This document shows, piece by piece, positions 24,575-56,848 of a stretch of DNA of 64,000 nucleotides. A program made the position numbers and the translations under genes. The notes beneath the pieces are model-generated. The model made no database searches, was not told where the DNA came from, and worked only from the letters and a program-made list of their open reading frames with translations. Origin of the DNA: Candidatus Staskawiczbacteria bacterium (GTDB taxonomy: Bacteria; Patescibacteriota; Minisyncoccia; Minisyncoccales; Staskawiczbacteraceae); NCBI GenBank assembly GCA_026395175.1, contig JAPLZF010000015.1, forward strand, positions 21,066-85,065, read 5' to 3'. Within the stretch, counting starts at the first letter, position 1. Every line of letters starts with the position of its first letter.

Positions 24575-26305
24575 TTAACTTTTAAATTTAACTTTTCTTA
24601 AAAACGCTGGTATTTCCCATTCTTTTTCCTGCGCCAATCTCTTTTTTTCTAAAAGTTCTTCGGCTTCTTTGATTTCCAAACCGCTTCTCCTTATTGTTTT
24701 TTTAATTGAAGATGATGCTTCAACAACATCTAGTCTTCTTTGTTCTAAAACCGGAATACCCGGAGAGCGCTCGGGAACAGGAACCTCAAACACAGGAATA
24801 ATGGAAACCTGCTTTTCCTTCTTTTTTACCGACTTTTTATTTTTTACCCGTTCGACTCCGCTCAGGGCAGGTTTTTTCGCTTTTGGTTTTGCTTCTTTTT
24901 TGATTATTTTTTCAACAGGCTCTGGCTTAACTAATTTTGCGGGTTCTATTTTCTCCTCAATTATTTTTTCTTCGGCTTGCCCGCCGGTCATCAAAATTGT
25001 GGTTTTTATTTTGTTTTTCAGCTTTGAATCTTTTGAAATTCCAAAAATAATTTTTGCTTTAGGATTTTGGTTAGATATGTGGCTGCTGATTTTTTCCACT
25101 TCAAACATTGAAAGATTTTCAGAACCCACAATATTGAACAAAATCTTTTCCGCTTTCAAATTGCTGTTCTGCAAAAGAGGATTTTTAAAAATATTTTCGC
25201 AGGTTTTTTCCACTCTGTTTTTGCCTTGCTGTTCAATGGTGTTTAAAAATGCCGAATTTCCCCTGCCTTTTAAAATTGTCCGCAAATCGGCAAAATCAAT
25301 ATTTATAATTCCCGGATTGTAAATTAGGTCTATTAAGCTTTCCAAAGATTCAATCAGGCTTTTATTGACGGTTGAAAAAGCATTTGTAATTGGCGTTGAT
25401 TCGTCAATAATTTTAAAAATTTTCTCATTGGGAATCACCAGAGAAACATTTAACGATTGGCGTAAAGATTTTAAGGCATTCAAAGCTATGCGCTGTTTGT
25501 TTTTGCCTTCAAATTTAAATGGCATTGTAAATATGCCAAAAGTAATTCCGCCAAAATCTTTTGCGGCTTCCGCAAAAACCTGCGTGGCTCCAGAGCCCAA
25601 TCCTCCTCCCAAAGAAGCCACAAAAATTATTATGTCTTGGTTTTCAAAAAATGCGCCAATTTTTTCTTTGGCCGACTCGGCCGCTTGTTTTGCCAGCTCA
25701 ACATTAACTCCGGTTCCCAAGCCGTGAGTCATTTCCTCGCCAAACCAGAAATATTTTATTCCGGATTTCTTTTTTAATGCCCGAATGTCGGTGTCGGCAA
25801 TAACAAAAGTTGCCTTTTCCAAGGACCTGCCAATTTCAGAAACAATTGAGCCACCTCCCCCGCCAATTCCAATAACTTTAATTTTTGCCTTAAACAAAGA
25901 CTCTGCCGGAAACTCTGTTATTTGAGGTTTTGGAGAGGCTTTTCTTGCCCTGTTAAATAATTTCGGCTTTGCCGAAATTCCCGCTTTGCGGGATTTAACA
26001 GGGTGAACTTTTTTAATAATTAACTTTTTTACAAGTTTTTTTGTTTTTACAGGCTTACGCTTTACTATTTTTTTTATTATCTTTTTAGGTTTTACAGCCT
26101 TTTTTATTGCCTTTCTTGCCCTGTTAAATAATTTCGGCTTTGCCGAAATTCCCGCTTTGCGGGATTTAACAGGGTGAACTTTTTTGACAATTTTTTTCTT
26201 ATTTAAAATCTTCCTGCGTTTTGCGGGCTTCTTTTTTTTTATTATATTTTTTTTCCCTCGCCTCGCCGAAGCTTTACGCGAAGGCGGGTTCTTTTTCTTT
26301 GGCAT
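24575..26305 (-). CDS. ftsZ: Cell division GTPase FtsZ with a long lysine-rich repeat-containing N-terminal extension
   Basis: Tubulin/FtsZ motifs are VIGIGGGGGSIV and ASLGGGLGSGATQV. The preferred start is MPKKKNPP (26305), which has a TATAAT 6 nt upstream. The ORF track extends to 26344. Confidence 0.9.
   Translation of the reverse strand: MPKKKNPPSRKASARRGKKNIIKKKKPAKRRKILNKKKIVKKVHPVKSRKAGISAKPKLFNRARKAIKKAVKPKKIIKKIVKRKPVKTKKLVKKLIIKKVHPVKSRKAGISAKPKLFNRARKASPKPQITEFPAESLFKAKIKVIGIGGGGGSIVSEIGRSLEKATFVIADTDIRALKKKSGIKYFWFGEEMTHGLGTGVNVELAKQAAESAKEKIGAFFENQDIIIFVASLGGGLGSGATQVFAEAAKDFGGITFGIFTMPFKFEGKNKQRIALNALKSLRQSLNVSLVIPNEKIFKIIDESTPITNAFSTVNKSLIESLESLIDLIYNPGIINIDFADLRTILKGRGNSAFLNTIEQQGKNRVEKTCENIFKNPLLQNSNLKAEKILFNIVGSENLSMFEVEKISSHISNQNPKAKIIFGISKDSKLKNKIKTTILMTGGQAEEKIIEEKIEPAKLVKPEPVEKIIKKEAKPKAKKPALSGVERVKNKKSVKKKEKQVSIIPVFEVPVPERSPGIPVLEQRRLDVVEASSSIKKTIRRSGLEIKEAEELLEKKRLAQEKEWEIPAFLRKVKFKS
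25944..26008. repeat. Nested-palindrome repeat, copy 2 (inside ftsZ coding sequence)
   Basis: CTTGCCCTGTTAAAT-AATTTCGGCTTTGCCGAAATT-CCCGCTTTGCGGG-ATTTAACAGGGTGAAC. It is translated in frame as VHPVKSRKAGISAKPKLFNRARKA. Confidence 0.85.
26115..26179. repeat. Nested-palindrome repeat, copy 3 (inside ftsZ, 171 nt from copy 2)
   Basis: The 65 nt are identical to copy 2. A 171-nt (57-codon) tandem duplication keeps the frame. Confidence 0.85.
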
Positions 26306-36900: not shown

Positions 36901-39900
36901 CATATGCGTAGCTTGTGTAAAGCGTAAAATCTTGGGTTGGCAAAGTCCTGCCAAAGCTGTTTGAAAAATATGGCAAAGATTCTTTCTGCAATTGTCCAAG
37001 ATTATTGTAAATATAATCTTTTGTCTCAAAATTATTATTCTCCGCAGATTTTTTTGTTTGGATAATTCTGCCTAATCCATCGTAATAATTATAACTATTA
37101 ACAGCCGTAGAAGAATCTAAATAATCAGTTTGCTGAACGCTCAAAGCACCAGAAGTGTCGGTGTAAATATAAAATGTTTTTTGAACCAATGTTGCCGGAT
37201 TTGCTTGGTCGGGCTGTTCTGTTTTTAAAATTCTTCCGAAGCCGTCGTAAGTGTTTTTAAAAACATTTCCGTTGGCATCTGTGGTTTGCGCAATTTTTCC
37301 GTTGGCGTAATTGTAAATATATTGCGTTGTCTGGCTTAAAGCATTGGTAATTATTGCCGGATAAAGATTATAGCTGTCGTAAGAAAAATTAGTTGCGTTT
37401 CCATTGGCATCTTTGCTTTGAGAAACAAGCCCATAATTATTGTAAACTTTTTGCGAGCTGGCGTAATTTGAATTATTTATCCAATCCTCTTCTTTTGTCT
37501 GGTTTCCCAAACTGACGCTGCCCAATGGCAGATTGTCGTAATAATATCGGCTTTCTTTGATTTTATTATTATTTTGTCCGCTGACAATTATGCCAGACGG
37601 ATAACCAACAACATTGCCACCGGCAGCGTAACTGATGTTAGTGATATATTTGTCATTGCCAACATCTGTGAAGCTTCCGTCATTATTTGCCAAAACTTGT
37701 CCCCATTCTATTTTTTGAGTTTGGTTGCCGTTGCTATTGTCATAGCTATAACTTTCTGTTTTGTCTTTGTGATTTATTGTTCCGTCATAATCTTCTTTTG
37801 TTGCTTGAATTAATTTTGCAAATCCGGCGCTGCCTGCCAAGTTATAACTATCCCATTTGTTTATATTCACCTGATAAAGTTTGCCGGAATTGTCATATTG
37901 CTCTGTCCTGTAAGCTTTTCCTATTTTAAAATAATTGTCCTGATATTGCCCGCGGGATGAATCGTTTCCTGAGCCGGTATTGTAAAAAGTTTTTGTCACA
38001 TTTTGCGCGCTATCAATTTGGTCTATTTCCGCAAAACCGGCAAGATTCCTGTCGAAAGGCCCTTTGTAATAATATGTCCCGCCAAAATACTGGTAATTTT
38101 CCGAAGAAACAATATTATTTACAGGATCTGTGGCATTAATTTTAGAAACAGTTTGAACCGACAAAGGCAATTTTGGATTGGGCAAATTGCCCAAACTATT
38201 GTTGTAAAGAGTTGACGGGGCATAAGAAATATTTATTGTTTCTCCGGTGTTTAACGTAATTGAATTCAACAAGTCATTGCCGGCTGGACTGAGAACCAAG
38301 TTGCTTGTTTGCTGAAAATATATTTCATTAGGGTTGTCGCCGGAAAAATTTCCGAGCGCAAATAATTTGCCGGCGTATGCGCTGCCTCCAACAGAAAAAT
38401 TATAAGGCAAGCTGACATCAAAAGGCTCAGCCCAGCCTTTGCCTGTGTTTAGAAATACTCTTTGAGCTGTAACCGTTTGGCCTGGCAGCGGCTGATATGG
38501 AATGCTGTCAACAACTTGCGTGTTGCTTGTGGCTTGAACCAAATCCACCAAGCCGTCGCCGTTGTAATCAATTACCCTTACTCCGAGTTCATGATTGCCA
38601 CCATAACCGGCGCCTTGGATATAATCACGAAATGAAAATAATGTTGGCGGAGCATAGTTGTCGCTTAAATAAAAATTTCCCAAACCGTCGCCCAGCCAAG
38701 TTTTTTGGACAGTTTCGTCATATGGATAATTATTTACTTCCTGATACTGATATTGCCCAATTTCATGATAACTGGCAATTATATCCAAAATTCCATCGCC
38801 ATTTACATCTGTGGAAATTATTCCGGCTACCGAATTGCCGTCTGCGTTTGGAAAATAAATTTTGTTGGATCCGGTTGAATTATAAGTGTATTCCGGCGGA
38901 CTATAACTTTTTTTCACAAAACTACTGCCGGTGTTTGAATAGTAAGCAGAATCTACGCTGGTGCCGGCAAAAAAATCCGGCAAGCCGTCGCCATTTATAT
39001 CAAAAAAATTAGCGTTGGGAAAAGATCCGTTAGTGCAAATTGAACCAATGCCGGGAATTTTAAACTGCCACGAAAAATCTTGGTTCCAGCCCGAACCTGT
39101 ATTTATAAATATTGCCGGTCCTTGGCAAGGAATAATTAAATCCGGCAAGCCGTCGCCGTTTATATCTGTAAAAAAATGAGTTGTTTGTAGAAAAGATGGA
39201 GAAGCAGAAACAAATATTGCCGGCGGCTGGTAAGATGGAGATTCTGTCCATCCGTTTTTTCCATTATTCAAGTAAGCTTTCTGCAGGACAAAACCGGACG
39301 ATGAATAAGAAATTAAAACATCGGTTAATCCGTCGCCGTTTAAATCCGCAAATTCGGCGTAGTCGGAAAATTGCTTAATGTCTGAAGGCAAGTCATAAGT
39401 TGTTTTGCCCGCGTATAAATCATTGGCATAATTAAAACTTGTTTTTGGCTTTGCAATTATATTCCCGCCGGCGGTTTTTCCTGATTCTGTTATGCTTTGA
39501 AGAATTGAACGGCTGCCGTTGCTTCCTGTCTCATAAGCTAAATCATATTTATTAACCCAATTTCCGCTTGCAGAAGCTGTTATTTGGCTTATGCGATAAT
39601 TAGTTGTTGCCAAAAATCCAGCGCCGTAGCTTGCGGTGTTGTCGGCTCTTGCCTCGGTTGCAAAACTAACTTCAAAAATTCCGCCGGTGTTTCCGTTGCC
39701 GGTGTATCTTATTGCCAAAGGATAAATTTGACCCGCGTCTTTAAAATAAGAATAAGAAATATAATTATTGTTGGCGTCTCTCACTTCCTGCAGCATCCAT
39801 TTGTAAACATTGCCAGGATTTTGCGGGTCGTTTTGCTGAGACGCGCTGTTATAACCAAACTTGTATTGCGTGCCGTCTTTGGCAACCACCAGCCATTGAT

Positions 39901-40510
39901 TGTTTGAAAAAGTATATTTGTTAAAACTGCCGTTTTCTGTTCTGGCAACAAAAGATGAACTATCAACAGTTGAAAGTTCACCGTCAAGCGAAGAATAAAA
40001 ATAATTTGAACTATACAGCGAATCTGTTCCGGTTTTATTCAACCGCTGAATATAAGGAATGTTCAGCTCCCAACCGTAGCCAAAAATGCCGGCTTGCTCA
40101 TTTTGACTGCTGTTATACGACAATGCAATATCGGGCTGTAAATTATTCCTGCCCGGAGGAATGGAAATTGGATAACTATAATTCAAAGCTCCTGTGTTTT
40201 TGTCTATTTCCGGCAGTTTTTGAGTCATCGAAGAAACAGAAGCTGGCGGTTGCGCTGGATTGCTCTGGTCTAAAGCTTTGCTCTCTGCAGTTTGGTCGGA
40301 CGGCGTAACTGCTTGGATGTTACTTTGCAAAGCATCGGCTGGCACCCCATCAGCCATCGGCGTGGTTGTGTCTAATGCCGGCACCGGCAAGACTGGCGTA
40401 TCTGAAGTGTCAGAAACAAAAACATCGTCTGATGTTTCGGCAAACGCAGGGGCAATTGGCGTTATTAAAAATGCAAAGATTAAAAAAGTTGCTGTAATCT
40501 TATAAGCCAT
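33956..40510 (-). CDS. Rhs/YD-repeat polymorphic toxin (SpvB-like N-terminus, FG-GAP/VCBS repeats, YD shell, barnase-like RNase C-terminus)
   Basis: The start is set to MAYKITATFLIFAFLITPIAPAFA (signal peptide). The SpvB-like motif is ALNYSYPISIPPGRNNLQPDIALSYNS..GYGWELN. There are four D.NGDG(L)(T/P/V)D repeats and dozens of YD repeats (Y.YD..G). The core end is DYFPFG..RYYNSALARF. A hydrophobic pre-toxin segment follows. The C-terminus FYRNAEGHS..YLEYPV..ERMLVG..GDMYYTSDHYQSITTIKR parallels barnase ..FSNREGKLP..WREADI..DRILYS..LIYKTTDHYQTFTKIR. Confidence 0.9.
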   Translation of the reverse strand: MAYKITATFLIFAFLITPIAPAFAETSDDVFVSDTSDTPVLPVPALDTTTPMADGVPADALQSNIQAVTPSDQTAESKALDQSNPAQPPASVSSMTQKLPEIDKNTGALNYSYPISIPPGRNNLQPDIALSYNSSQNEQAGIFGYGWELNIPYIQRLNKTGTDSLYSSNYFYSSLDGELSTVDSSSFVARTENGSFNKYTFSNNQWLVVAKDGTQYKFGYNSASQQNDPQNPGNVYKWMLQEVRDANNNYISYSYFKDAGQIYPLAIRYTGNGNTGGIFEVSFATEARADNTASYGAGFLATTNYRISQITASASGNWVNKYDLAYETGSNGSRSILQSITESGKTAGGNIIAKPKTSFNYANDLYAGKTTYDLPSDIKQFSDYAEFADLNGDGLTDVLISYSSSGFVLQKAYLNNGKNGWTESPSYQPPAIFVSASPSFLQTTHFFTDINGDGLPDLIIPCQGPAIFINTGSGWNQDFSWQFKIPGIGSICTNGSFPNANFFDINGDGLPDFFAGTSVDSAYYSNTGSSFVKKSYSPPEYTYNSTGSNKIYFPNADGNSVAGIISTDVNGDGILDIIASYHEIGQYQYQEVNNYPYDETVQKTWLGDGLGNFYLSDNYAPPTLFSFRDYIQGAGYGGNHELGVRVIDYNGDGLVDLVQATSNTQVVDSIPYQPLPGQTVTAQRVFLNTGKGWAEPFDVSLPYNFSVGGSAYAGKLFALGNFSGDNPNEIYFQQTSNLVLSPAGNDLLNSITLNTGETINISYAPSTLYNNSLGNLPNPKLPLSVQTVSKINATDPVNNIVSSENYQYFGGTYYYKGPFDRNLAGFAEIDQIDSAQNVTKTFYNTGSGNDSSRGQYQDNYFKIGKAYRTEQYDNSGKLYQVNINKWDSYNLAGSAGFAKLIQATKEDYDGTINHKDKTESYSYDNSNGNQTQKIEWGQVLANNDGSFTDVGNDKYITNISYAAGGNVVGYPSGIIVSGQNNNKIKESRYYYDNLPLGSVSLGNQTKEEDWINNSNYASSQKVYNNYGLVSQSKDANGNATNFSYDSYNLYPAIITNALSQTTQYIYNYANGKIAQTTDANGNVFKNTYDGFGRILKTEQPDQANPATLVQKTFYIYTDTSGALSVQQTDYLDSSTAVNSYNYYDGLGRIIQTKKSAENNNFETKDYIYNNLGQLQKESLPYFSNSFGRTLPTQDFTLYTSYAYDALNRAVSSINSVGATITAYNNWKTSVTDANGKTKDFYEDAYGNLIQVGEHNASNIYSTYYSYNGLSDLINITDALGNVRNFSYDGLDRKLIAEDLHNPTDSVFGVWNYTYDNVGNLISLTDAKNQTINYNFDALNRKTSEDYAGKAGVEATFIYDACPNGKGLLCKSVSAQQTEQYEYSSLGNITKDTKIIDTKTFITQYNFDRQGNQILIINPDNSQIKNIYNPAGLLDQIQKKESTDTAFANVISNFDYSPLEQITTESFANGAISTNTYDSAKLYRLANKITNTATGTQLQNLAYIYDNVGNIIQFVDNSATDSKKTVAYTYDDLYRLLSSTATNVASGQQAYTQSFTYDALGNMLSQKLNDTTTTYDYKGNLNNAGSSYANPDAVTKTSATKTNSQTVVVGKSAEPIAKIILASNRVPVGYIDGVMSTTYAGWIAYGWTADPDVPNTSISVDIYIDGAIGTGTFLSRVSANTASPDVTKVFPAYTGNHRFIYSIPAKYQDGKPHTIYIYGIDSAGGANFLLSNSPKTFTIGDPGTNNFQYDQNGNITSDGINSYTYDYNNRLVSATNISANTTTTYAYDANGQRIKITTNPSPGLGSSLASSTYYPTQNYNASYLTPTTQNPTSIVKHIFANNQNIATINGTGAVAKIYYNATDSLNSSSVMTDSAGALAETMDYFPFGAIRIDNKTSSFTEQRKYIGQEFDADTGLNYLNARYYNSALARFISEDSASRDNPEKFLADPQQLNYYSYSRNNPITLSDPTGQSWKTFVQGSARGVVYAGAVTVLVAGAITALPIEIPAAIATGIGVGVVSMAGAATVYGSYKNYQDCVSGKISKDQFDYNSGEMLGGWIGAGTTAKLLGGLGKTLSAENSLEIDTSVKQFGKSIYQGKVNLQPTVDAIESGKIGPKINKNTGLTEFYRNAEGHSQLNYNNGNQYLEYPVNNSGAPSNTAERMLVGTKNGDMYYTSDHYQSITTIKR
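34721..34794. repeat. 74-bp segment identical to 33193-33266
   Basis: See 33193-33266. Confidence 0.85.
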
Positions 40511-40517
40511 ATGTTTG

Positions 40518-40546
40518 ATAATGGCACAATCGTCTTGCAATGTCAA
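40518..40546 (-). promoter_or_regulatory. Promoter of the large Rhs gene (TTGACA-N17-CATTAT), apparently leaderless
   Basis: The minus strand reads TTGACATTGCAAGACGATTGTGCCATTATCAAACATATG. The -10 ends 7 nt before the ATG at 40510. Confidence 0.5.
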
Positions 40547-40564
40547 ATATTTTAAAAAACCTCT

Positions 40565-40589
40565 CAACTCGGGTTAATTGGTTAGAAAT
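40565..40589. repeat. 25-nt conserved box, copy 2 (upstream of the Rhs promoter)
   Basis: CAACTCGGGTTAATTGGTTAGAAAT is identical to 31186-31210. Confidence 0.8.
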
Positions 40590-43784: not shown

Positions 43785-46745
43785 TTAATAGCTCCAGCTC
43801 AAATCGCCTTTATTCGTCGTAATTTTGATAATTTTCAGACCGCTTAATGATTTTAATATTTTGCCTGAGGAATCCTTGCCAATCAAGCTTGTATTTTTGC
43901 CGTCATAAACCGCTAAAACATTATATTCTTTCTTGGATTTTGCATATTGGGAAAGCATTTTCAAATTTTTATTTTTATCATAAAGCCACAAAAATGCCAT
44001 TTGGTTTTTGCTGATGTCAACGGAAACTCCATTATATTTTATTGCCTTAATTTCAGCCGACATTAAAATTTTTCGGTTTTTGCTTTTCAAATCAATTTCT
44101 GTTGTGTTGCCGGCATGATCTGTCAAAATAATCACGTCGTCTTTGTCAGAAATTGAATCAGAACTTTCCGCCGGGTAAAATTTTAAATCTTTTATGCCTG
44201 GGTCAAATTGGATTACTGCTTCCGGCGCTGTTTTATCTATTGTAAAAGTTATGGTTTTTTCCTGTTCGTTATTTCCCGCCTTGTCGGTTGAAAAAAATAT
44301 TATTGAGTGTTTTCCTTCTTTTGAAACTGGAATTACGGCTGTGTCGTCGGATATTTTCTGCCAACCTGCGTCATCCAAATTATATTCCATATCCAAAACG
44401 CCCGAAGAATCATCTGTTGCTTTGATATTTGCATTGACATTACTTCTATAAAAACCGGGCTGGCCAATTGCGCCGGTTAAAGTTGCTGTTGAAACCGGCG
44501 GCAATAAATCTTCAGAGGCAGAACTATCAAGAGTTGCCGACGGCAAAATAATTTCAGGCGAATTATTTAAAGAAAGCGTTGTTGAGTTGTCGGCAGGGCT
44601 GATATTAATTTGGCCTTCAAGCTCTGCTGTAACCGACAAGTTGCTGAATACTTCTGTTTTTGCAATTTGGCTGTTGCTTATATCCTGATTTTTTATTGTG
44701 AAAGTTCCTGCGCCTGTTCCCTGCAAATTTATGTTGTAAACTTGACCGTTATCCTGCGGAAGATAAACAAATTTGTGTTCGCCTAAAATTTCAAAATCGG
44801 CATTTGGAATTTCGTTTATAATGCTTCCGTCGTCTGCCAAGCCTAATTTATTTCCATTTTGGTCTGTCACAAAAATATTTACCGGGCTAAAAACAGAAAT
44901 TGCTTTTCCATTTAAACCGCACTTTAAAACATCCTGAGTTATCAAATCCTGGCCATTGTCTTGGCTTGTCGGAAGATTACTGCCGGAAACTAAATTTACA
45001 ATTTCCTGACGAATTCCATTTTCGCTTGGCATTTTTCCGTGGTCGGAAACCAAAGCATAATATTTATTATTCTGGTTAATTGGCAAATTTGTAGCGCTTT
45101 CCAAAGGAACTGTGTTGTCGCCGGGAACCAAAGGCAAAGCTCCATATTGCAAGCTATAACTTGTTTCCTCGCCTCCAAACATATTTTTGTCTTTTCTTTC
45201 CACAACTTGCGCCAAAGTTCCTGCCCTGCATCCGTCTATGGCATAAAGCTCAACTCCAGCTGTTCTTAAATCGTAATTGTCAAAATTTTGCGTATGCAAA
45301 TTTTCAGCATTGGCAAGCCCCAAAGCGTTTAAAGAATGCTCGCCGGTTAAAAAACTTTCCGATTCTTCATAATTCAAATCTTTTTCTGAATAAGTTAAAT
45401 TGTAAATGTCCTGATTTATTGTTTTTATAAAACTGCCTTTTTCGCTATAATATTGCCGGCTGGGAAGCAAGTCGTAGCTGGCGGGCATGTTTGCAGAAAT
45501 CTTTTTTATTTCCTGGTCGTTCAGCCCCAAAACTCCAAAATTGTCTCCCTGCAATAAAACTTTTACTGCTTTTGGAGCGCCGGTATTCGGCACGCCCACA
45601 AAAACAGCTTTTCCAATGTGATTATCTGTTGGATTATCCATTGCATATTTTTTGACAATCAAACCGCCCATGCTGTGGGCAACAACATCAACTTTGTCGC
45701 TACCGGTCTGTGCCATAATATCCTGAATTTTTGTCGCCAGCAAATCTGCATTAGTTTTTCCATCGGCAAATTTTCCTGACACCCCATACCGCCAATCATA
45801 AGGAAAAGTAAACAAATTTTCATTCTCTGCATATCCCTGCCCCTTAAATTCATTAATAAGCCCATCTGTGTAATCATAGTTAACTAAGCCGAAAGCAGTT
45901 TCTATTTTTTTAATAACATCACTCGCATAAACTCCATTATCCGCTGATGTTAAATCTTGGTTAAATCCTAGCGGATCCATAAAATTATCGCCAATATTTG
46001 TTAACATTCTTTCTATATCTAGCCATAATAATTCATCCCCATTTTTCATTTCTGTTCCAACTAATCCCGGCACAATCAAAACCGGATTTTTTGTTTTAAC
46101 ATTAATTAAATTTTCTTGTATGGCATCAAAATAAGCAACCCCGTCTGTAACGCTCATCCTTACAGTGTTCAGTCCTGTTGTCCAATTGGCCATTCCAGAA
46201 ACCCAGCTTGTCCATGCTCCGCCATTAATATTATATCTGACTTTATGGTCAGAGCTTCTCCATTGTATTTGCAGAGCATACCAAGAATCTGAAGAAAACC
46301 CTGGTCCAAAATTAACATACGAAGCGCTGTCGCCGTTAAAATATCTGAAAAAACTTAAATTATTCTTCATAGACGCCACAACAACAGCGCCCTCTTTCAG
46401 CTGGACTTCCACTTGAGGATTGGTGGTTCCTCCAACAACTCTCCGCATATAAATAGTAATTAATCCATTATTCAAAGTTTTGCCGGATTTTTCTGCGAAA
46501 AAAGAACCCGGGTAGGGTTCGTATATTTTCATAGCTTTTGTCCCTTCAAAAACGGTATAATTTTCAACTATCACATTCGGCGAACTGGCATACCATGAAC
46601 CCTGCCCTTTCAAAGACCCATTATTAATGTAATCATTGAAATTATCAGTAAATATGGTTGCCGCATCGGCGCTGTTGCAAAAAATAAAAAATCCAAAAAA
46701 ACTGAATATTATTACGCCAATAAAAATTCCAATTTTATTTTTCAT
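43785..46745 (-). CDS. Large secreted alpha/beta-hydrolase lipase (LCAT/PGAP1-like) with an N-terminal LamG-like domain and C-terminal Ig-like domains
   Basis: 986 aa with a signal/TM at the N-terminus. PVLIVPGLVGTEM is an LCAT-type start, and the nucleophile elbow is VDVVAHSMGGLIV. The C-terminal beta-rich region is unassigned. Confidence 0.6.
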   Translation of the reverse strand: MKNKIGIFIGVIIFSFFGFFIFCNSADAATIFTDNFNDYINNGSLKGQGSWYASSPNVIVENYTVFEGTKAMKIYEPYPGSFFAEKSGKTLNNGLITIYMRRVVGGTTNPQVEVQLKEGAVVVASMKNNLSFFRYFNGDSASYVNFGPGFSSDSWYALQIQWRSSDHKVRYNINGGAWTSWVSGMANWTTGLNTVRMSVTDGVAYFDAIQENLINVKTKNPVLIVPGLVGTEMKNGDELLWLDIERMLTNIGDNFMDPLGFNQDLTSADNGVYASDVIKKIETAFGLVNYDYTDGLINEFKGQGYAENENLFTFPYDWRYGVSGKFADGKTNADLLATKIQDIMAQTGSDKVDVVAHSMGGLIVKKYAMDNPTDNHIGKAVFVGVPNTGAPKAVKVLLQGDNFGVLGLNDQEIKKISANMPASYDLLPSRQYYSEKGSFIKTINQDIYNLTYSEKDLNYEESESFLTGEHSLNALGLANAENLHTQNFDNYDLRTAGVELYAIDGCRAGTLAQVVERKDKNMFGGEETSYSLQYGALPLVPGDNTVPLESATNLPINQNNKYYALVSDHGKMPSENGIRQEIVNLVSGSNLPTSQDNGQDLITQDVLKCGLNGKAISVFSPVNIFVTDQNGNKLGLADDGSIINEIPNADFEILGEHKFVYLPQDNGQVYNINLQGTGAGTFTIKNQDISNSQIAKTEVFSNLSVTAELEGQINISPADNSTTLSLNNSPEIILPSATLDSSASEDLLPPVSTATLTGAIGQPGFYRSNVNANIKATDDSSGVLDMEYNLDDAGWQKISDDTAVIPVSKEGKHSIIFFSTDKAGNNEQEKTITFTIDKTAPEAVIQFDPGIKDLKFYPAESSDSISDKDDVIILTDHAGNTTEIDLKSKNRKILMSAEIKAIKYNGVSVDISKNQMAFLWLYDKNKNLKMLSQYAKSKKEYNVLAVYDGKNTSLIGKDSSGKILKSLSGLKIIKITTNKGDLSWSY

Positions 46746-46752
46746 AAAAATT

Positions 46753-47091
46753 TTAGAAAAAGTTAATTCGGCTCATCGAATATGATAAACATAAACTTAA
46801 TACCAACACTAACAATATTATCACCAATACTATATCTAAAGCATATTTTAATATAGTATTAATTTTTGCATCTTTTTTGTTTAGCAAATAAATAATCCCC
46901 GAAATACCAATAATTTCTATAATAATCACCAAGAAAGCTATCATCGGTTCGTCAGTAAAATATTTTATATTTTTATAAATTGGTAAAAAAGATATTTTAA
47001 ATATTTTTATGAGATTACCCCATAAAATTTCTGGGACGGCAAACATTGCCATAAAAATCCAAAGCCATATTTTTTGTATTTTTGTCATCAT
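46753..47091 (-). CDS. Small polytopic membrane protein
   Basis: 112 aa with 3 hydrophobic segments. Confidence 0.35.
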   Translation of the reverse strand: MMTKIQKIWLWIFMAMFAVPEILWGNLIKIFKISFLPIYKNIKYFTDEPMIAFLVIIIEIIGISGIIYLLNKKDAKINTILKYALDIVLVIILLVLVLSLCLSYSMSRINFF

Positions 47092-47160
47092 ATTTTTAAC
47101 TTCGCTTATTCCAATATTCTCAAGAACACTGGAATATCCAAAGTGCGATTAATTTTAATA

Positions 47161-47511
47161 TTATTCTTTATATTGTTCTCTTATTTTAGACCAACAAAAA
47201 ATAATTATACAGGATAAAATATACAGATAAATAATTTCAAAAAAACCAAATACAAAAATCCAAACGTTGCCTTCTTGTAAAAAATTAAAATGCTTTAGAA
47301 TAGGAGCGAACATACTTAAGAAAAAATAAACGGGTCCGACTAAAATAATGATAAAAAGCACTGACCCAGATGAACCATTACATCCCCAACTAAACATACA
47401 ATCCATGACAAATGAAAGATACCAAAATATTGTAATTATAGTAGAAATTAATAAAATAATAGCAAAAATAATCTTTTTCTTTGAAGGCGTTAAAATTTCT
47501 AATATATTCAT
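47161..47511 (-). CDS. Small polytopic membrane protein
   Basis: 116 aa with 3-4 hydrophobic segments. Confidence 0.35.
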   Translation of the reverse strand: MNILEILTPSKKKIIFAIILLISTIITIFWYLSFVMDCMFSWGCNGSSGSVLFIIILVGPVYFFLSMFAPILKHFNFLQEGNVWIFVFGFFEIIYLYILSCIIIFCWSKIREQYKE

Positions 47512-47575
47512 ATTGTTTAATTATACACCTTCTCATCTAAACAAAAAACCTTGTCAAACTTTTGGCTGTGGATAA

Positions 47576-47611
47576 CTTTCGGTTTTCTTTCGGTTTTTAT
47601 ATTGTTATAAT
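47576..47611 (+). promoter_or_regulatory. Promoter region of the LexA-Dam gene: tandem 11-nt direct repeats over the -35, then TATAAT
   Basis: CTTTCGGTTTT occurs twice (47576-47586 and 47587-47597). TATAAT is at 47606-47611, 27 nt before the ATG. TATTG-N11-CAATA brackets the -10. Confidence 0.4.
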
Positions 47612-47638
47612 AAAGCAATAAAAATAATTTTCAAAGAA

Positions 47639-49180
47639 ATGCTAACAAAAAAACAAACCCAAACATTAGACTATATCAAAAAATACATAGAAGAAAAAAA
47701 CTATTCCCCCACGCTTGAAGAGATAAGAGACAATTTTGGTCTCTCCTCGGTTTCCACCATACACGAACACGTGCAAACTCTTAAAGAAAAGGGATATTTA
47801 GAAAAAATAGAAAATCAACCAAGGTCAATCGAATTATCCCAAAACAAAAAATTTGAATTGTTAGAAATCCCTCTGCTTGGGATTATCGCTGCCGGACAAC
47901 CCATAGAGGCGATTGAAATTCCAGAAGAAACAATAACTATACCAAAAAATGACGTTGGAAAATTTGGAAAATTTTATGCCTTGAAAGTTCGAGGAGACAG
48001 CATGATAGACGAAGGAATTTTCGACGGCGATATAGTTGTGCTCAGAGAACAAAAAATTGCTGAAGACGGCCAAACCGTTGTTGCAATTATTGACGACAAC
48101 CAAGCAACGCTTAAAAAAATATATCGGGAGAAAAATAAATTTCGTTTGCAACCGGCAAATCAAAATCTTTTACCATTTTTCAGAACTAATGTGGAAATTC
48201 GCGGTGTAGTTGTAAAAGTTATACGAAACCTTGAAATCAACAGAGAAAATACACTAGAAAACAGGAAAAAAGTATTTTTAGAAAGAATAAGAAGCAAAAA
48301 TCCAGACAGTTCTAATAAATACAAAAGAGTCGTTGAATCGCCGATAAGATACGCTGGCGGAAAAAGTTTAGGAGTTGGATTTGTTGCAGAACTTTTACCA
48401 GATAATATAAATAGGATAATATCGCCATTTTTTGGCGGAGGATCAATTGAAATCGCTTTCAACAAATATCTTGGACTAGAGGTTGTCGGATATGATATTT
48501 TTGATATTTTGGTCAATTATTGGAATATCCAAATAAACAAGCCAAAAGCATTATTCAAAAGATTGTCAGAATTAGAGCCAAACGAAAAAACCTACAAAGA
48601 TATAAAAGAAAGATTGAAAAAACATTGGAAGAAAGAAAAAAAGATGGCTCCGATGGACTTAGCTGTTCATTATTATTTTAATCATAATCTATCATATGGC
48701 CCTGGATTTTTAGGCTGGCCATCTAGTATTTACCTTAAAAAAGAACGATATGAAACAACCATTGAGAAAGTCCGCGATTTTTCTGTTAACAATTTTGAAG
48801 TTAAATGCGCCAGCTTTGAAGAAGCTTTTGAAAAATACCCAAATGATTTTTTCTATTGCGACCCGCCATATTTGCTGGGCCATGACTCAAAAATGTTTAG
48901 AGGAATTTATCCAATGAGAAATATTCCTGTCCATCATAATGGATTTCCTCACGAAAAATTATTAGATTTACTAAAAAAACACAAAGGTGGCTTTGTGCTT
49001 TCTTACAACAATTGCCAAACTATAAGAGATTGGTATAAAGATTACAAACATTATTTCCCAACGTGGCAATATACAATGGGACAAGGAGAAACTAGAATAG
49101 GTAAAAACAGGATAGAAAACGGAGACAACCACATAAAACATTCCCACGAAATAATTATCTTCTGCCCTCCAGCAATTTAA
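47639..49180 (+). CDS. Fusion protein: full-length LexA (wHTH plus S24 self-cleaving domain) joined to a Dam-family (D12 class) N6-adenine DNA methyltransferase
   Basis: One uninterrupted 513-aa ORF. The LexA part has LTKKQ..LDYIKKYI..SPTLEEI, the cleavage site IIAAGQP, the catalytic Ser in VRGDSM, the Lys in QATLKKI, and ends ..RGVVVKVIRNL. A basic linker of about 35 aa follows. The MTase part has SPIRYAGGK, PFFGGGS (motif I) and FYCDPPY (motif IV). Confidence 0.85.
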   Translation: MLTKKQTQTLDYIKKYIEEKNYSPTLEEIRDNFGLSSVSTIHEHVQTLKEKGYLEKIENQPRSIELSQNKKFELLEIPLLGIIAAGQPIEAIEIPEETITIPKNDVGKFGKFYALKVRGDSMIDEGIFDGDIVVLREQKIAEDGQTVVAIIDDNQATLKKIYREKNKFRLQPANQNLLPFFRTNVEIRGVVVKVIRNLEINRENTLENRKKVFLERIRSKNPDSSNKYKRVVESPIRYAGGKSLGVGFVAELLPDNINRIISPFFGGGSIEIAFNKYLGLEVVGYDIFDILVNYWNIQINKPKALFKRLSELEPNEKTYKDIKERLKKHWKKEKKMAPMDLAVHYYFNHNLSYGPGFLGWPSSIYLKKERYETTIEKVRDFSVNNFEVKCASFEEAFEKYPNDFFYCDPPYLLGHDSKMFRGIYPMRNIPVHHNGFPHEKLLDLLKKHKGGFVLSYNNCQTIRDWYKDYKHYFPTWQYTMGQGETRIGKNRIENGDNHIKHSHEIIIFCPPAI

Positions 49181-49776
49181 ACTTTTTTAGATTTTTTCTT
49201 AGCTTTTTTAGCATTTTGAACACGATATTTTTCATAACTTTTCCGGACCCATTCTGGCCAACGATAACCGGCTCCCCTCCCTCTGCTTTGGAAATGCCAA
49301 TCTGGATATTTATGTTCAACAGAAAAATAGTCCTCATTACATTTTTCTTCCATCTCTTTATATGCGACAACAAATCCTTTTTCACTCCCAAAAAGTCCTT
49401 TGATTTCTGTTTTTATTTCTTTTGAAACTATCACATAAAATTCTACCTTTTTACCTTCGTCAAGTTCTTTTTTAATAAGAAGATGGATACCGAAACTTCT
49501 GATGCTTGGACCACCTTGCATAGCTCCTTGATAAAAATTCATGGTAGATTTTATTCCCCCTTTTCCTTGAGATCCCCCAATTTTCTTTATTATCTTATTA
49601 ATTACAATAATGTATACAAATCCAACTCTTTTTCTTAAAATTTTATTATCTAATTTTTGTCCATTTTCATCGAAAATATTTTCGATATAATTAAATTTAA
49701 TAAAATTTTTAGGATGTATCGGCTCTAAAACAACATCTGCAACCTTAAAACACGTTTTGACTTCTTTAATATTCAT
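49177..49776 (-). CDS. GIY-YIG/T5orf172-like nuclease candidate, convergent with the LexA-Dam gene
   Basis: 199 aa. RVGFVYIIVINKIIKKIGGSQ fits G-(I/V)-Y ..~10.. (Y/K)-I-G. An acidic cluster (KEMEEKCNEDY) lies downstream, and the C-terminal tail is basic. The stop overlaps the LexA-Dam stop region by 4 nt. Confidence 0.45.
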   Translation of the reverse strand: MNIKEVKTCFKVADVVLEPIHPKNFIKFNYIENIFDENGQKLDNKILRKRVGFVYIIVINKIIKKIGGSQGKGGIKSTMNFYQGAMQGGPSIRSFGIHLLIKKELDEGKKVEFYVIVSKEIKTEIKGLFGSEKGFVVAYKEMEEKCNEDYFSVEHKYPDWHFQSRGRGAGYRWPEWVRKSYEKYRVQNAKKAKKKSKKV

Positions 49777-49793
49777 AAATTTATAAATTAATA

Positions 49794-51530
49794 TTAGTTA
49801 TACATCGATTCGATGGATTTTTTGTAGTGGGTTTCAATAATGTGCCTGCGGAATTTTAAAGTGGCTGTGAGCTCTTCCCTTTCCTGTGAAAATTCCTGCG
49901 GCAAAAGCCTGAAATTTCTTATTTTTTCAAAATCGTGCAAGTTAGGATTTATTTTTTCATCAATTCTTTTCTGAAAAATATCCAGCAGAACACGGCTTTT
50001 TATCAGCTTGTCGTGTTCCTGCAAAGACAAATTATTCTGCTTGAAATACATTTCAATTTCCTGCCAGTCGGGAACAATCAAAGCGGAAATAAATTTTCTG
50101 CTGTTTCCAATAATTATTGCCTGAGAAATAAAGCGGTCGTTATTCAACAAATTTTCAACGGGCTCGGGCCAAACATTTTTGCCTCCGGAAGTCACAATCA
50201 TTTCCTTTGCCCTGCCGATTATTGTCAAAAACCCCTGCTTGTCGATAAAGCCCAAGTCGCCGGTGCAAAACCATCCTTCTTTGTCAAAACATATTTTTGC
50301 CTCATTTTTTCCTCTGAAATATTCCTGAAAAACATTCGGGCCTTTCACCAAAATTTCCTTGTCGTCAGCAATTTTAACTTTTACGCCGGGAATTATCTTG
50401 CCCACCGTGCCAAATTTAAAATCAAATTCCCGGTTTGTGGAAATTACCGGCGAAGTTTCCGTCAAGCCATATCCTTCCAAAATCATAATTCCAATTTTTG
50501 AAAAAAATCCGGCGATGTTCTCGTTCAAAGACGCTCCGCCAGAAATGGCAAGCCGAAGTTTTCCGCCCAATTGACGCCTTACTTTTTTGAAAACCGCAAA
50601 ATCGGCTATTTTGTATCTTAATGTGTTTTTTTTCTGCTTTAACGCCCATTTGAAAATTCTTTTTTGGAAATCAGGCGAGCTGTTTATCTTGTCCCAAATA
50701 GCATCATGGAATTTTTCAAAAACGCGCGGAACCGAAATAATCACAGTCGGCTTCACTTCTTTCAAGTTAGCCGGCAGTTGTTTTGTATTTTCCGCGTAGG
50801 CTATTGTGGCGCCGTAACATATTGGCACATAATAGCCAATTGTCCTTTCCAAAACATGCGACAACGGCAGAAAAGACAAAAAAACATCATTTTCCTTCAC
50901 CGGAACAATTTCATTTATCGCCTCCACGTTGCTCAAAAAATTTCTGTGCGACAAAATTACGCCTTTGGGTTTTCCGGTGGTGCCGGAGGTATAAATAATC
51001 GAACAGCAGTCATCGGGGTCCAAAAATATTTTTTCAAATTTGTTATTTTGATTCTGGGAAAATATGGCTTTCCAGCTGATGACTTTACCGGTTAAATTTT
51101 CTTTTTGCGTGGCAGACAAGCTTTCCATAATAATAATTTTTTCAAGATGCTTTAAATATTTCTGCCCCAATAATACTTTGTTTAGAAGCTCGCTGTTTGA
51201 AACAATGAGAATTTTTGCCCGAGAATGGTTCAAAACATTACAAACCGCTTTCGGAGTAAAAGTTGCATGCAGGGGCACAACAACAGCTCCAACCGCCATA
51301 ATCGACAAGTCAGAAATTGCCCACTCGGACCTGTTCTCCGATAAAATTGCCACCCTGTCGCCCTTGTTCACTCCGAGAGCTGAAAGGCACGAACTGAAAA
51401 TTTCCACTTTTTTTGAAACTTCTTTGTAGGCAATCGGAAAATAAACTCCCTGTTTTTTGTATAAAAAAGCCGGCTTGTTGGGATGCTTTTCTGCGGTTTC
51501 AAAAAAAACTTCGGGAATTGCCTTATACAT
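49794..51530 (-). CDS. Long-chain fatty acid-CoA ligase (AMP-forming, ANL superfamily)
   Basis: The AMP-binding motif is IIYTSGTTGKPKGV, with later GYGLTE and GDLG motifs. The start is moved to MYKAIPEVFFE (51530) to remove the overlap with the upstream gene. Confidence 0.85.
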   Translation of the reverse strand: MYKAIPEVFFETAEKHPNKPAFLYKKQGVYFPIAYKEVSKKVEIFSSCLSALGVNKGDRVAILSENRSEWAISDLSIMAVGAVVVPLHATFTPKAVCNVLNHSRAKILIVSNSELLNKVLLGQKYLKHLEKIIIMESLSATQKENLTGKVISWKAIFSQNQNNKFEKIFLDPDDCCSIIYTSGTTGKPKGVILSHRNFLSNVEAINEIVPVKENDVFLSFLPLSHVLERTIGYYVPICYGATIAYAENTKQLPANLKEVKPTVIISVPRVFEKFHDAIWDKINSSPDFQKRIFKWALKQKKNTLRYKIADFAVFKKVRRQLGGKLRLAISGGASLNENIAGFFSKIGIMILEGYGLTETSPVISTNREFDFKFGTVGKIIPGVKVKIADDKEILVKGPNVFQEYFRGKNEAKICFDKEGWFCTGDLGFIDKQGFLTIIGRAKEMIVTSGGKNVWPEPVENLLNNDRFISQAIIIGNSRKFISALIVPDWQEIEMYFKQNNLSLQEHDKLIKSRVLLDIFQKRIDEKINPNLHDFEKIRNFRLLPQEFSQEREELTATLKFRRHIIETHYKKSIESMYN

Positions 51531-56752: not shown

Positions 56753-56776
56753 TTTTTTTATTTTTAATAATACTTG

Positions 56777-56848
56777 TGGGCGCGGAAGGAATCGGACCTT
56801 CGACCTCTGTCTTATCAGGACAGCGTTCTACCACTGAACTACGCGCCC
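56777..56848 (-). tRNA. tRNA-Ile (anticodon GAU)
   Basis: The minus strand reads GGGCGCG-TA-GTTC-AGTGGTA-GAAC-G-CTGTC-CTGATAA-GACAG-AGGTC-GAAGG-TCCGATT-CCTTC-CGCGCCC-A. This is a canonical cloverleaf with anticodon loop CU-GAU-AA. CCA is not encoded. Confidence 0.9.

Follow-up and report, generated by a model that had tools for sequence, protein, structure and literature searches.

The 64,000-nucleotide stretch of DNA analysed here (Candidatus Staskawiczbacteria bacterium, assembly GCA_026395175.1, contig JAPLZF010000015.1, positions 21,066 to 85,065 of the forward strand; hereafter the window) encodes a type II restriction-modification (R-M) system, which is composed of a D12-class N6-adenine methyltransferase (MTase) and a convergent GIY-YIG restriction endonuclease (REase). 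At its N-terminus the MTase carries a paralog of the LexA proteins of the candidate phyla radiation (CPR), which we propose to be the built-in controller of the system. We consider it probable that this LexA module represses the promoter of the MTase gene, and that self-cleavage triggered by DNA damage relieves the repression.

The LexA-MTase fusion gene and its domains

The fusion is encoded by one uninterrupted open reading frame (ORF) of 513 amino acids (aa), as a preliminary description of this DNA had reported, and its coordinates and those of its domains are given in Table 1. Residues 2-198 match the NCBIfam lexA equivalog TIGR00498 (189.8 bits compared to a cutoff of 110.95, model positions 4-202 of 203), and their best solved relatives in the PDB are LexA from T. 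maritima (3k2z, E 6e-32) and LexA from E. coli. Together with the two Pfam domains and the cleavage site, nucleophile and general base listed in Table 1, all of the LexA hallmarks claimed in the preliminary description were recovered at the expected places. Unlike stand-alone LexA proteins of ~200 aa, the fusion continues into a C-terminal MTase. This half contains the MethyltransfD12 domain (PF02086, residues 238-480, 123.5 bits), matches the PADLOC MTase_II model, and has the adenine MTases 7m6b and DpnM as its best solved relatives, in agreement with the D12-class motifs FFGGGS and DPPY recognized earlier. Sequence-specific N6-adenine methylation is its predicted activity. The predicted recognition helix of the winged helix-turn-helix (wHTH) domain is S-T-I-H-E-H (residues ~39-44).

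In the AlphaFold2 model of the fusion, low-confidence hinges at residues 69-72 and 197-202 indicate that the domains, as modelled, are modular. Stand-alone MTase homologs start at the equivalents of residues ~185-206 and share the segment KK.FL..I.SKNP.S.N.YKR, and we place the true junction between LexA and MTase at about residues 197-206. The basic linker of ~35 aa that had been described after the LexA part was not borne out: residues ~207-237 are the conserved N-terminus of the MTase family and are kept in its stand-alone homologs. The gene had also been called the only large plus-strand gene. Among the 41 ORFs of at least 180 aa in the window (3 on the plus strand and 38 on the minus strand), it is the sole plus-strand ORF lying outside longer minus-strand ORFs, so that this claim stands for non-nested genes, while two shorter plus-strand ORFs (24669..25322 and 49935..50501) are nested.

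Table 1. Features of the R-M locus in window coordinates.
Feature	Position	Strand	Basis or remark
LexA-MTase fusion gene	47639..49180	+	uninterrupted ORF, 513 aa plus stop codon
LexA wHTH DNA-binding domain, residues 2-62	47642..47824	+	Pfam PF01726, 62.3 bits
S24 autopeptidase/dimerisation domain, residues 78-192	47870..48214	+	Pfam PF00717, 92 bits
Scissile bond Ala85-Gly86	47891-47896	+	read from sequence
Nucleophile Ser121	47999-48001	+	read from sequence
General base Lys159	48113-48115	+	read from sequence
D12-class (alpha-group) N6-adenine MTase, residues 207-507	48257..49159	+	PADLOC MTase_II PDLC03281, 1e-119
FFGGGS (S-adenosylmethionine motif FxGxG; F264-G266-G267-G268)	48428-48445	+	read from sequence
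Catalytic DPPY (D408-P409-P410-Y411)	48860-48871	+	read from sequence
Type II REase, GIY-YIG fold, 199 aa	49177..49776	-	convergent, overlaps fusion 3' end by 4 nt
Operator: direct repeat TTTCGGT-TTTC-TTTCGGT, 11-bp period	47577..47594	+	over -35 region and spacer of fusion promoter
Putative extended -10, TGTTATAAT	47603..47611	+	read from sequence
TGTGGATAAC, perfect DnaA-box consensus (reverse complement TTATCCACA)	47567..47576	+	abuts operator, about -52 to -43 from inferred transcription start
Low-GC island, GC 0.23-0.35 (flanks 0.38-0.41)	46750..49790		composition profile; two membrane ORFs and R-M pair

The fusion is widespread in Patescibacteria

We searched 5.8 billion proteins for homologs of the full fusion, and found that at least 120 protein clusters of 508-538 aa share the three-domain architecture with 62-85% identity and 99-100% coverage. 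The named clusters all belong to Patescibacteria (Parcubacteria, Patescibacteria, Wolfebacteria, and Giovannonibacteria). In an alignment of 30 diverse D12 fusions, Gly86, Ser121, Lys159, FxGxG, and DPPY are invariant and Ala85 is conserved in at least 90%, and the conservation continues across the LexA/MTase junction. The identical 513-aa gene, beside an identical REase gene, was also present in three assemblies from independent read sets (Logan, L001-L003).

Two genes joined by a sequencing error could in principle look like this, as relatives with unfused LexA-then-MTase gene pairs and 4-nt overlaps do exist, and the exact protein of the window was absent among the matches listed in the protein search. 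Such an assembly or annotation artefact was rejected, and we regard it as next to impossible, because the same continuous architecture recurs in so many homologous clusters, the fused gene was assembled independently, and the junction sequence is conserved. The LexA-MTase architecture reported in the preliminary description is therefore genuine and is found well beyond this genome.

The convergent gene encodes a GIY-YIG restriction endonuclease

The overlap of the convergent 199-aa ORF with the fusion gene, also reported earlier, was confirmed, and the stop codons of the two genes overlap within TTTAAA. The 199-aa protein has a 100% identical match at NCBI, named 'type II restriction endonuclease [Ca. 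Staskawiczbacteria]', and its homologs from Campylobacter and Helicobacter (42-45% identity) are annotated as type II REases. No Pfam match was obtained for it, GIY-YIG models included. When a profile of 39 homologs was compared with the PDB, the only informative matches were T4 EndoII (E 0.013) and R.Hpy188I (E 0.018), and a search with the single sequence found T4 EndoII only, weakly. The AlphaFold2 model of the protein (predicted local distance difference test 90.4) gave significant Foldseek matches (E <1e-4) to T4 EndoII (2wsh) and R.Hpy188I (3oqg/3or3) only, with E values of 3e-6 to 3e-5 and a probability of 1.0.

The motif of the REase is VY55-x9-K65-I-G67. Among its homologs Y55, K65, G67, E112, and E143 are invariant and R93 is conserved in at least 90%, and in the hidden Markov model alignment these residues, compared by sequence only, are consistent with the K-I-G variant of the Hpy188I type. 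These results indicate that the 199-aa ORF, noticed earlier as a GIY-YIG-like nuclease, is a GIY-YIG type II REase distantly related to R.Hpy188I, and it travels with the MTase in other genomes as described below.

That the REase cleaves the site protected by the MTase is a predicted pairing. We analyzed palindrome avoidance in five host sets and found many depleted palindromes, including GATC, GGCC, and CTAG; among these many, GTAC was the only A-containing 4-mer depleted in all five sets. The Hpy188I site TCNGA was not depleted in the DNA of these hosts.

A direct repeat with a period of 11 bp overlaps the promoter of the fusion gene

The operator repeat has a single match in the window, which is located at the promoter of the fusion gene itself. 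With a loose threshold, a period-11 direct repeat was found upstream of all 25 fusion genes examined. When exact 7-mers with at least 2 G/C were demanded, the repeat at period 11 was retained in 19 of 27 LexA loci and in none of 51 stand-alone MTase loci, and other periods occurred in at most 1 locus. The homologous promoters contain TTGACT-N17-TATAAT or TGnTATAAT at the matching position relative to the repeat. In L014 (TTGACT-TTCTATTCATTTTCTAT-TATACT) and in the unfused relative L292 (TTGACT-TTCTATTTATTTTCTAT-TATAAT), the repeat likewise covers the -35 region and the spacer. The region 47576-47611, where autoregulation had been suspected in the preliminary description, thus holds a conserved operator overlapping the putative promoter, which supports that idea.

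The bases of the repeat vary together with the recognition helix of the LexA domain. Where the helix is xH[E/Q]H, the repeat reads TTTCGG(T/G), in 13 of 13 genome loci and in the metagenomic loci for which the helix region was read. In 10 fusion loci, two unfused relatives (L292 and L293), and two viral contigs, the helix AH[F/Y]H comes with TTTC(T/G)A(T/A). HKH is found with TTTCGCT in the second fusion of L021 (L021b), and HHH with GTTCTA in L013. As these pairings recur across different MTase partners, the wHTH is predicted to read the repeat. The LexA box of alphaproteobacteria, GTTC-N7-GTTC, resembles the 11-bp-period repeat, and the loci L013 and L020 contain it literally.

The REase gene has no such element. 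A LexA operator was found upstream of it in none of 17 loci and was rejected there, and no conserved upstream element of another kind was detected; in the window, 17 nt separate the REase gene from its upstream gene.

A DnaA-box-like 10-mer adjoins the operator

The sequence TGTGGATAAC(TT) adjoins the repeat, and the copy listed in Table 1 is the only exact copy of the 10-mer in the window. With at most 1 mismatch, the 10-mer was found upstream of 24 of 27 LexA-clade genes, compared to 0 of 51 stand-alone MTase genes. Its orientation and its distance to the repeat vary among loci, and the same 10-mer occurs in oriC-like clusters of DnaA boxes and in one dnaA promoter of other bacteria. A role of the 10-mer as a part of the LexA operator was considered and rejected as the main reading, because it is invariant while helix and repeat vary, because of its variable orientation and distance, and because of the oriC-like clusters and the dnaA promoter elsewhere. 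It is probably a site for the DnaA protein of the host.

We scanned metagenomes with a 17-mer consisting of the box and the first repeat copy, which occurred on at least 120 contigs, and 80 loci were fetched. A LexA-clade ORF lay within 400 nt in 33 of them, and 31 of these 33 had the second repeat copy. Among the 47 loci with no LexA-clade ORF the second copy was present in 3, two of them at contig ends, and the rest belonged to unrelated bacteria and were clusters of DnaA boxes or a dnaA promoter. The combination of box and double repeat is therefore nearly exclusive to LexA-clade genes. In these metagenomes, only one orphan site was found as a candidate for a further regulon member with box and operator. 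It is a full box with double-repeat operator on a contig of 48% GC (L180:5363-5390), adjoined by no LexA-like ORF, and may be what is left of a decayed locus or else a target of another kind, unrelated to the clade.

Extra copies of TGTGGATAACTT were observed away from any LexA gene at L030:6952-6963 and L011:7926-7937. The former adjoins a region in which a replication-initiator-like ORF occurs together with a serine recombinase, possibly the origin of a mobile element.

The fusion belongs to a clade of LexA modules linked to R-M genes

A point absent from the preliminary description is that the fusion belongs to a large clade of LexA modules dedicated to R-M systems, fused or unfused, and combined with four MTase families. 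We searched the LexA domain alone against 1.8 billion representatives at 50% identity. Nearly all of its closest relatives, at 45-66% identity, form the N-terminal part of longer proteins (393-890 aa), and ordinary LexA proteins of ~200 aa do not exceed 51% identity. All 47 long representatives examined carry LexA_DNA_bind and S24 fused to an MTase, which belongs to N6_N4_Mtase in 31, Eco57I/N6_Mtase in about 7, D12 in 5, and C5 DNA_methylase in 3. The Ala-Gly site, the Ser, and the Lys are invariant in 47 of 47 of these fusions, at a mean column identity of only 14%.

Unfused members of the clade occupy related positions. In L089 and L091 the unfused LexA gene overlaps the start of a gamma-class MTase gene, and the REase gene, of the DraIII family in L091, is convergent. 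L294:3501-6457 contains genes for LexA (198 aa), Vsr, and a C5 cytosine MTase with a convergent 282-aa ORF, and a unit of box and repeat lies upstream in inverted form. In L090:4001-5412 and L293:3501-4914, a LexA-clade gene of 211 aa with a box-and-repeat promoter is followed by a methyl-directed REase of the DpnI family, and there is no MTase; a LexA that controls a type IIM enzyme of this family does not fit a simple model of balance between methylation and restriction. Of six unfused relatives, five are attached to R-M genes. The exception is L292:1-7630 from Ca. Pacebacteria, where the gene for an unfused LexA of 209 aa is located between uvrB and uvrA and a RhuM-family gene comes after it. 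It is 51-58% identical to the fusion LexA and has the same direct-repeat operator grammar and no DnaA-like box. This protein is probably the SOS LexA of its host, and its promoter suggests that the 11-bp direct repeat is probably the general LexA box of the lineage. The gene contexts of fused and unfused relatives thus describe a clade that is predominantly an R-M-associated controller and is close to an apparent host SOS LexA.

This closeness also raises the question of whether the fusion is itself the global SOS repressor, that is, a true LexA ortholog that carries an MTase, whose main role would be the control of repair genes and whose link to R-M would be secondary. Its score above the equivalog cutoff and the operator grammar shared with the relative between uvrB and uvrA speak for this. 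On the other hand, the promoter of the fusion gene is the only place in the window with the operator, and R-M genes accompany all fused relatives and all unfused ones except that in L292. Two LexA-MTase fusions that differ in their recognition helices are neighbours on one contig, L033 has a second, separate gene for an S24 LexA-like protein 2 kb from its fusion, and the metagenomic box with double repeat adjoins LexA-clade genes, not repair genes. From these results, a role of the fusion as global SOS repressor is quite unlikely.

We tentatively extend the interpretation to the whole clade: it may consist of portable, dedicated LexA controllers of R-M systems that have joined every major MTase family, by fusion or translational coupling, as well as DpnI-type and Vsr/Dcm operons, with co-evolving operators that would insulate systems sharing a genome, and with inputs from RecA at breaks and, through the DnaA box that is usually nearby, from replication.

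Several loci of the clade were also noted for their composition. L021:1-5436 (Ca. Portnoybacteria, PFWG01000025) carries two LexA-MTase fusions of different MTase classes side by side. The first is of the D12 type, is cut by the contig end, and has a convergent 264-aa ORF; the second is a 617-aa LexA with N6_Mtase/Eco57I and has a convergent 323-aa ORF. The helices of the two differ, being HKH in the second and HHH in the first as judged from its apparent full-length counterpart P0030, which suggests that co-resident systems are insulated from each other. L089:1-3843 is a defence island, in which the LexA/MTase/REase module lies beside SMODS and AGS_C, SLATT_4 (resembling the cyclic-oligonucleotide-based antiphage signalling system, CBASS), and a GmrSD-family gene. 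The IMG/VR contigs L092:3001-6328 and L093:773-3128, classified as viral, carry LexA-MTase fusions, and in both the -10 element has inverted TTTCGA(A/T) repeats on its downstream side; L092 has in addition a second MTase and a convergent 359-aa ORF.

A model for damage-triggered derepression of the MTase

In the circuit that we propose, the fusion would dimerise through its S24 domain, bind the repeat, and repress its own promoter, so that the promoter output would be set directly by the concentration of the MTase. Filaments of RecA on single-stranded DNA, formed upon DNA damage, at stalled forks, or at double-strand breaks that the cognate REase makes where its sites are under-methylated, would induce S24 to cut between Ala85 and Gly86. 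The cut would free the wHTH and leave the S24-MTase part intact. The new C-terminus of the freed wHTH, ending in IAA, resembles the ClpX degron that is exposed in E. coli LexA. With the promoter derepressed, more MTase would be made, and as no terminator separates the two genes, read-through into the overlapping convergent REase gene may dampen REase expression. Since cleavage at 85/86 would remove the DNA-binding domain only and the operator is found only at the MTase promoter, the predicted outcome is more MTase and thus protection. On balance, DNA damage would trigger a rise in protective methylation, as a feedback on self-restriction or a circuit of 'restriction alleviation'; this feedback interpretation is less certain than autorepression with damage-triggered derepression. 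Conceptually, the circuit is like the SOS-linked restriction alleviation of type I systems. The adjacent DnaA box might, speculatively, couple the promoter to the replication status.

A simpler device would be a constitutive autorepressor and dimerisation module, similar to the helix-turn-helix (HTH) domains of M.SsoII or M.EcoRII, in which self-cleavage has no physiological role and no SOS wiring exists. The S24 C-terminal domain of LexA is a dimerisation domain, and the self-cleavage of the fusion is itself a prediction from its residues. Autorepression by an HTH carried on an MTase works with no cleavage (PMC3874152). Dimerisation alone would not preserve the scissile bond and the catalytic dyad, whereas Ala-Gly, Ser, and Lys are invariant across the 30 D12 fusions and the 47 divergent fusions, in the latter against the low column identity given above. 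We therefore find the constitutive device rather unlikely.

The opposite outcome of cleavage is a suicide or addiction switch triggered by damage or phage, in which cleavage would inactivate or destabilise the MTase and the REase would kill the cell. LexA fragments of E. coli are degraded by ClpXP and Lon, a fate that the S24-MTase fragment could share. In addition, R-M systems can act as addiction modules (PMC3874152). However, the predicted cut would leave the whole MTase (from residue ~207) joined to a folded S24 domain, MTase would be restored by derepression, and an already methylated chromosome is not attacked quickly when the MTase falls. In addition, the REase gene has no LexA operator upstream in any of the 17 loci, and the operons of LexA with a DpnI-family enzyme do not fit a model of MTase loss. 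A switch of this kind is very unlikely, and the defence or addiction switch proposed in the preliminary description is favoured by none of these results, as the MTase would be left intact and the operator is never at the REase gene.

Several points weigh against autorepression with damage-triggered derepression as the working model. DNA binding, self-cleavage, and dependence on RecA are predicted from sequence comparison alone, and recA was not found within the window. The promoter elements were read from alignment, and a generic scan for sigma-70 promoters and terminators gave 14 sites compared to 10.6 expected, no better than shuffled AT-rich sequence. The correlation between helix and operator comes from related sequences, with about 4-5 independent types of switch, although these recur across partners. 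The unfused LexA between uvrB and uvrA, with its same operator grammar, makes cross-talk with the host SOS regulator, or identity to it, possible. The effect of convergent transcription on the REase gene is purely conjectural, and the invariant DnaA-box-like 10-mer beside the operator is left unexplained by the model.

Comparison with known systems

MTases with an N-terminal HTH, such as M.SsoII/M.Ecl18kI, M.EcoRII, and M.ScrFIA, autorepress their own promoter (PMC3874152). The fusion is similar to these autoregulators of the SsoII type in that a DNA-binding domain lies at the N-terminus of the MTase and the predicted operator overlaps the MTase promoter. It differs in having, instead of a simple Xre-like HTH, a LexA wHTH and an S24 domain with intact cleavage site and dyad, which adds a potential off-switch sensed through RecA. 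Its operator is a direct repeat with an 11-bp period and with a DnaA-box-like site beside it, and the promoter competition of the Ecl18kI type does not apply, because the REase gene is convergent here and divergent in SsoII-type systems.

With canonical LexA (TIGR00498; E. coli, B. subtilis, and T. maritima 3k2z), the module shares the domain order, the positions of Ala-Gly, Ser, and Lys, and presumed autoregulation. Unlike canonical LexA, the module is fused to a DNA MTase or translationally coupled with one, its operator was found only at its own promoter, no regulon of repair genes was detected, and more than one copy per contig with different specificities is possible, as in L021.

Controller (C) proteins such as C.PvuII, C.AhdI, and C.Esp1396I are likewise small, dedicated transcription factors that time and balance the expression of MTase and REase and travel with the R-M module, and the unfused LexA genes heading R-M operons (L089, L091, and L294) are positionally analogous to C-protein genes. 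However, C proteins are HTH dimers of the Xre type, which activate or repress an operon of the C and REase genes through C-boxes and have no protease domain or damage input, whereas the LexA regulator is on the MTase side and the REase gene has no operator. No ORF for a separate small C protein of the Xre type was found at the locus.

The Hpy188I system (3oqg, 3or3) also combines an adenine MTase with a REase of the GIY-YIG fold, with a K-I-G motif in which Lys replaces the second Tyr, and R.Hpy188I is the only REase among the significant structural matches. The similarity of the two REases is marginal (profile E about 0.02, 18-21% identity), and the Hpy188I system has no LexA module. CapH/CapP of CBASS and the S24 repressors of prophages and integrative and conjugative elements, such as CI and SetR, are cases in which a mobile or defence cassette is under a repressor that is proteolytically inactivated on DNA damage. 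There, the repressor and protease are separate proteins controlling effectors. In the fusion, the protective, antitoxin-like enzyme itself contains the cleavable repressor, and derepression would favour protection, not attack.

The component families and autoregulation borne by the MTase are already known. What appears to be new is the self-cleaving S24 LexA as a controller of R-M systems, its combination with four MTase families and with unfused operons, the operator code, and the association with a DnaA box. The searchable full-text literature yielded no description of LexA-MTase fusions; a 2017 paper on the SOS network of Patescibacteria lay outside this search, and an earlier mention is possible. 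Among the known anti-phage defences of CPR bacteria, hosts with a minimal capacity for repair, R-M systems are the main one. If the model is correct, a self-cleaving LexA within the methylase would link chromosome breaks directly to the balance of methylation and restriction, a link that to our knowledge has not been described for type II systems, and it would be the first circuit of self-restriction feedback ('autoimmunity sensing') described for type II R-M systems. The helix residues that track operator bases offer a natural set of orthogonal LexA/operator pairs. The clade would be an example of a global stress regulator repeatedly recruited as a cassette-borne controller, and its promoters a testable case of the co-occurrence of a DnaA box and a LexA box.

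The R-M pair without LexA and its genomic setting

We found 457 relatives of the MTase in species-representative genomes. Among the best 80 of these 457 loci, 23 encode full fusions, all in metagenome-assembled genomes of the Patescibacteria type, and the others encode stand-alone MTases that match residues ~200-513 with 57-69% identity and come from SAR11 Pelagibacteraceae, DPANN archaea, Altiarchaeum, and other CPR genomes. Most fused loci, and many unfused ones of SAR11, DPANN, and CPR, contain a homolog of the REase gene in convergent orientation to the MTase gene, and the genes flanking the two-gene module differ completely between genomes. As the pair exists with no LexA, its flanks vary, and it lies in a low-GC island in the window, these results indicate that the two genes form a mobile R-M module, which is older than the fusion and gained its LexA part in CPR. 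The island was probably acquired horizontally. A phage origin of the module was rejected, as close relatives were found on only about 3 of 2.9 million viral contigs. In a rough neighbour-joining tree, too crude for counting fusion events, two fusion subclades are interleaved with a few stand-alone MTases.

In four fusion loci, an unrelated convergent ORF of 257-280 aa takes the place of the GIY-YIG REase; presumably, it is another REase that works with the same MTase. These replacement ORFs (L009:5545-6333, L018:4081-4854, L023:5531-6373, and L021:1447-2241) have the sequence pattern MS(T/S)EKA.EVK..GH..E.EFA... and no Pfam match. The loci L040-L077 are single-cell genomes of SAR11 Pelagibacteraceae and L031-L081 are DPANN archaea, with the same D12 MTase (57-69% identity), often accompanied by the same GIY-YIG REase. 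SAR11 genomes and those of Nano-, Woese-, and Pacearchaeota commonly carry this R-M pair, which has thus been transferred very broadly.

Inside the low-GC island of the window, 46753-47511 on the minus strand contains two very AT-rich ORFs for small membrane proteins of 112 and 116 aa, which are conserved only in the near-identical assemblies L001-L003. The window further contains, on the minus strand, an ORF of 2203 aa (33956-40567), a gene for a secreted LCAT-like protein of 986 aa (43785-46745), and a single tRNA-Ile(GAT) gene (56776-56848).

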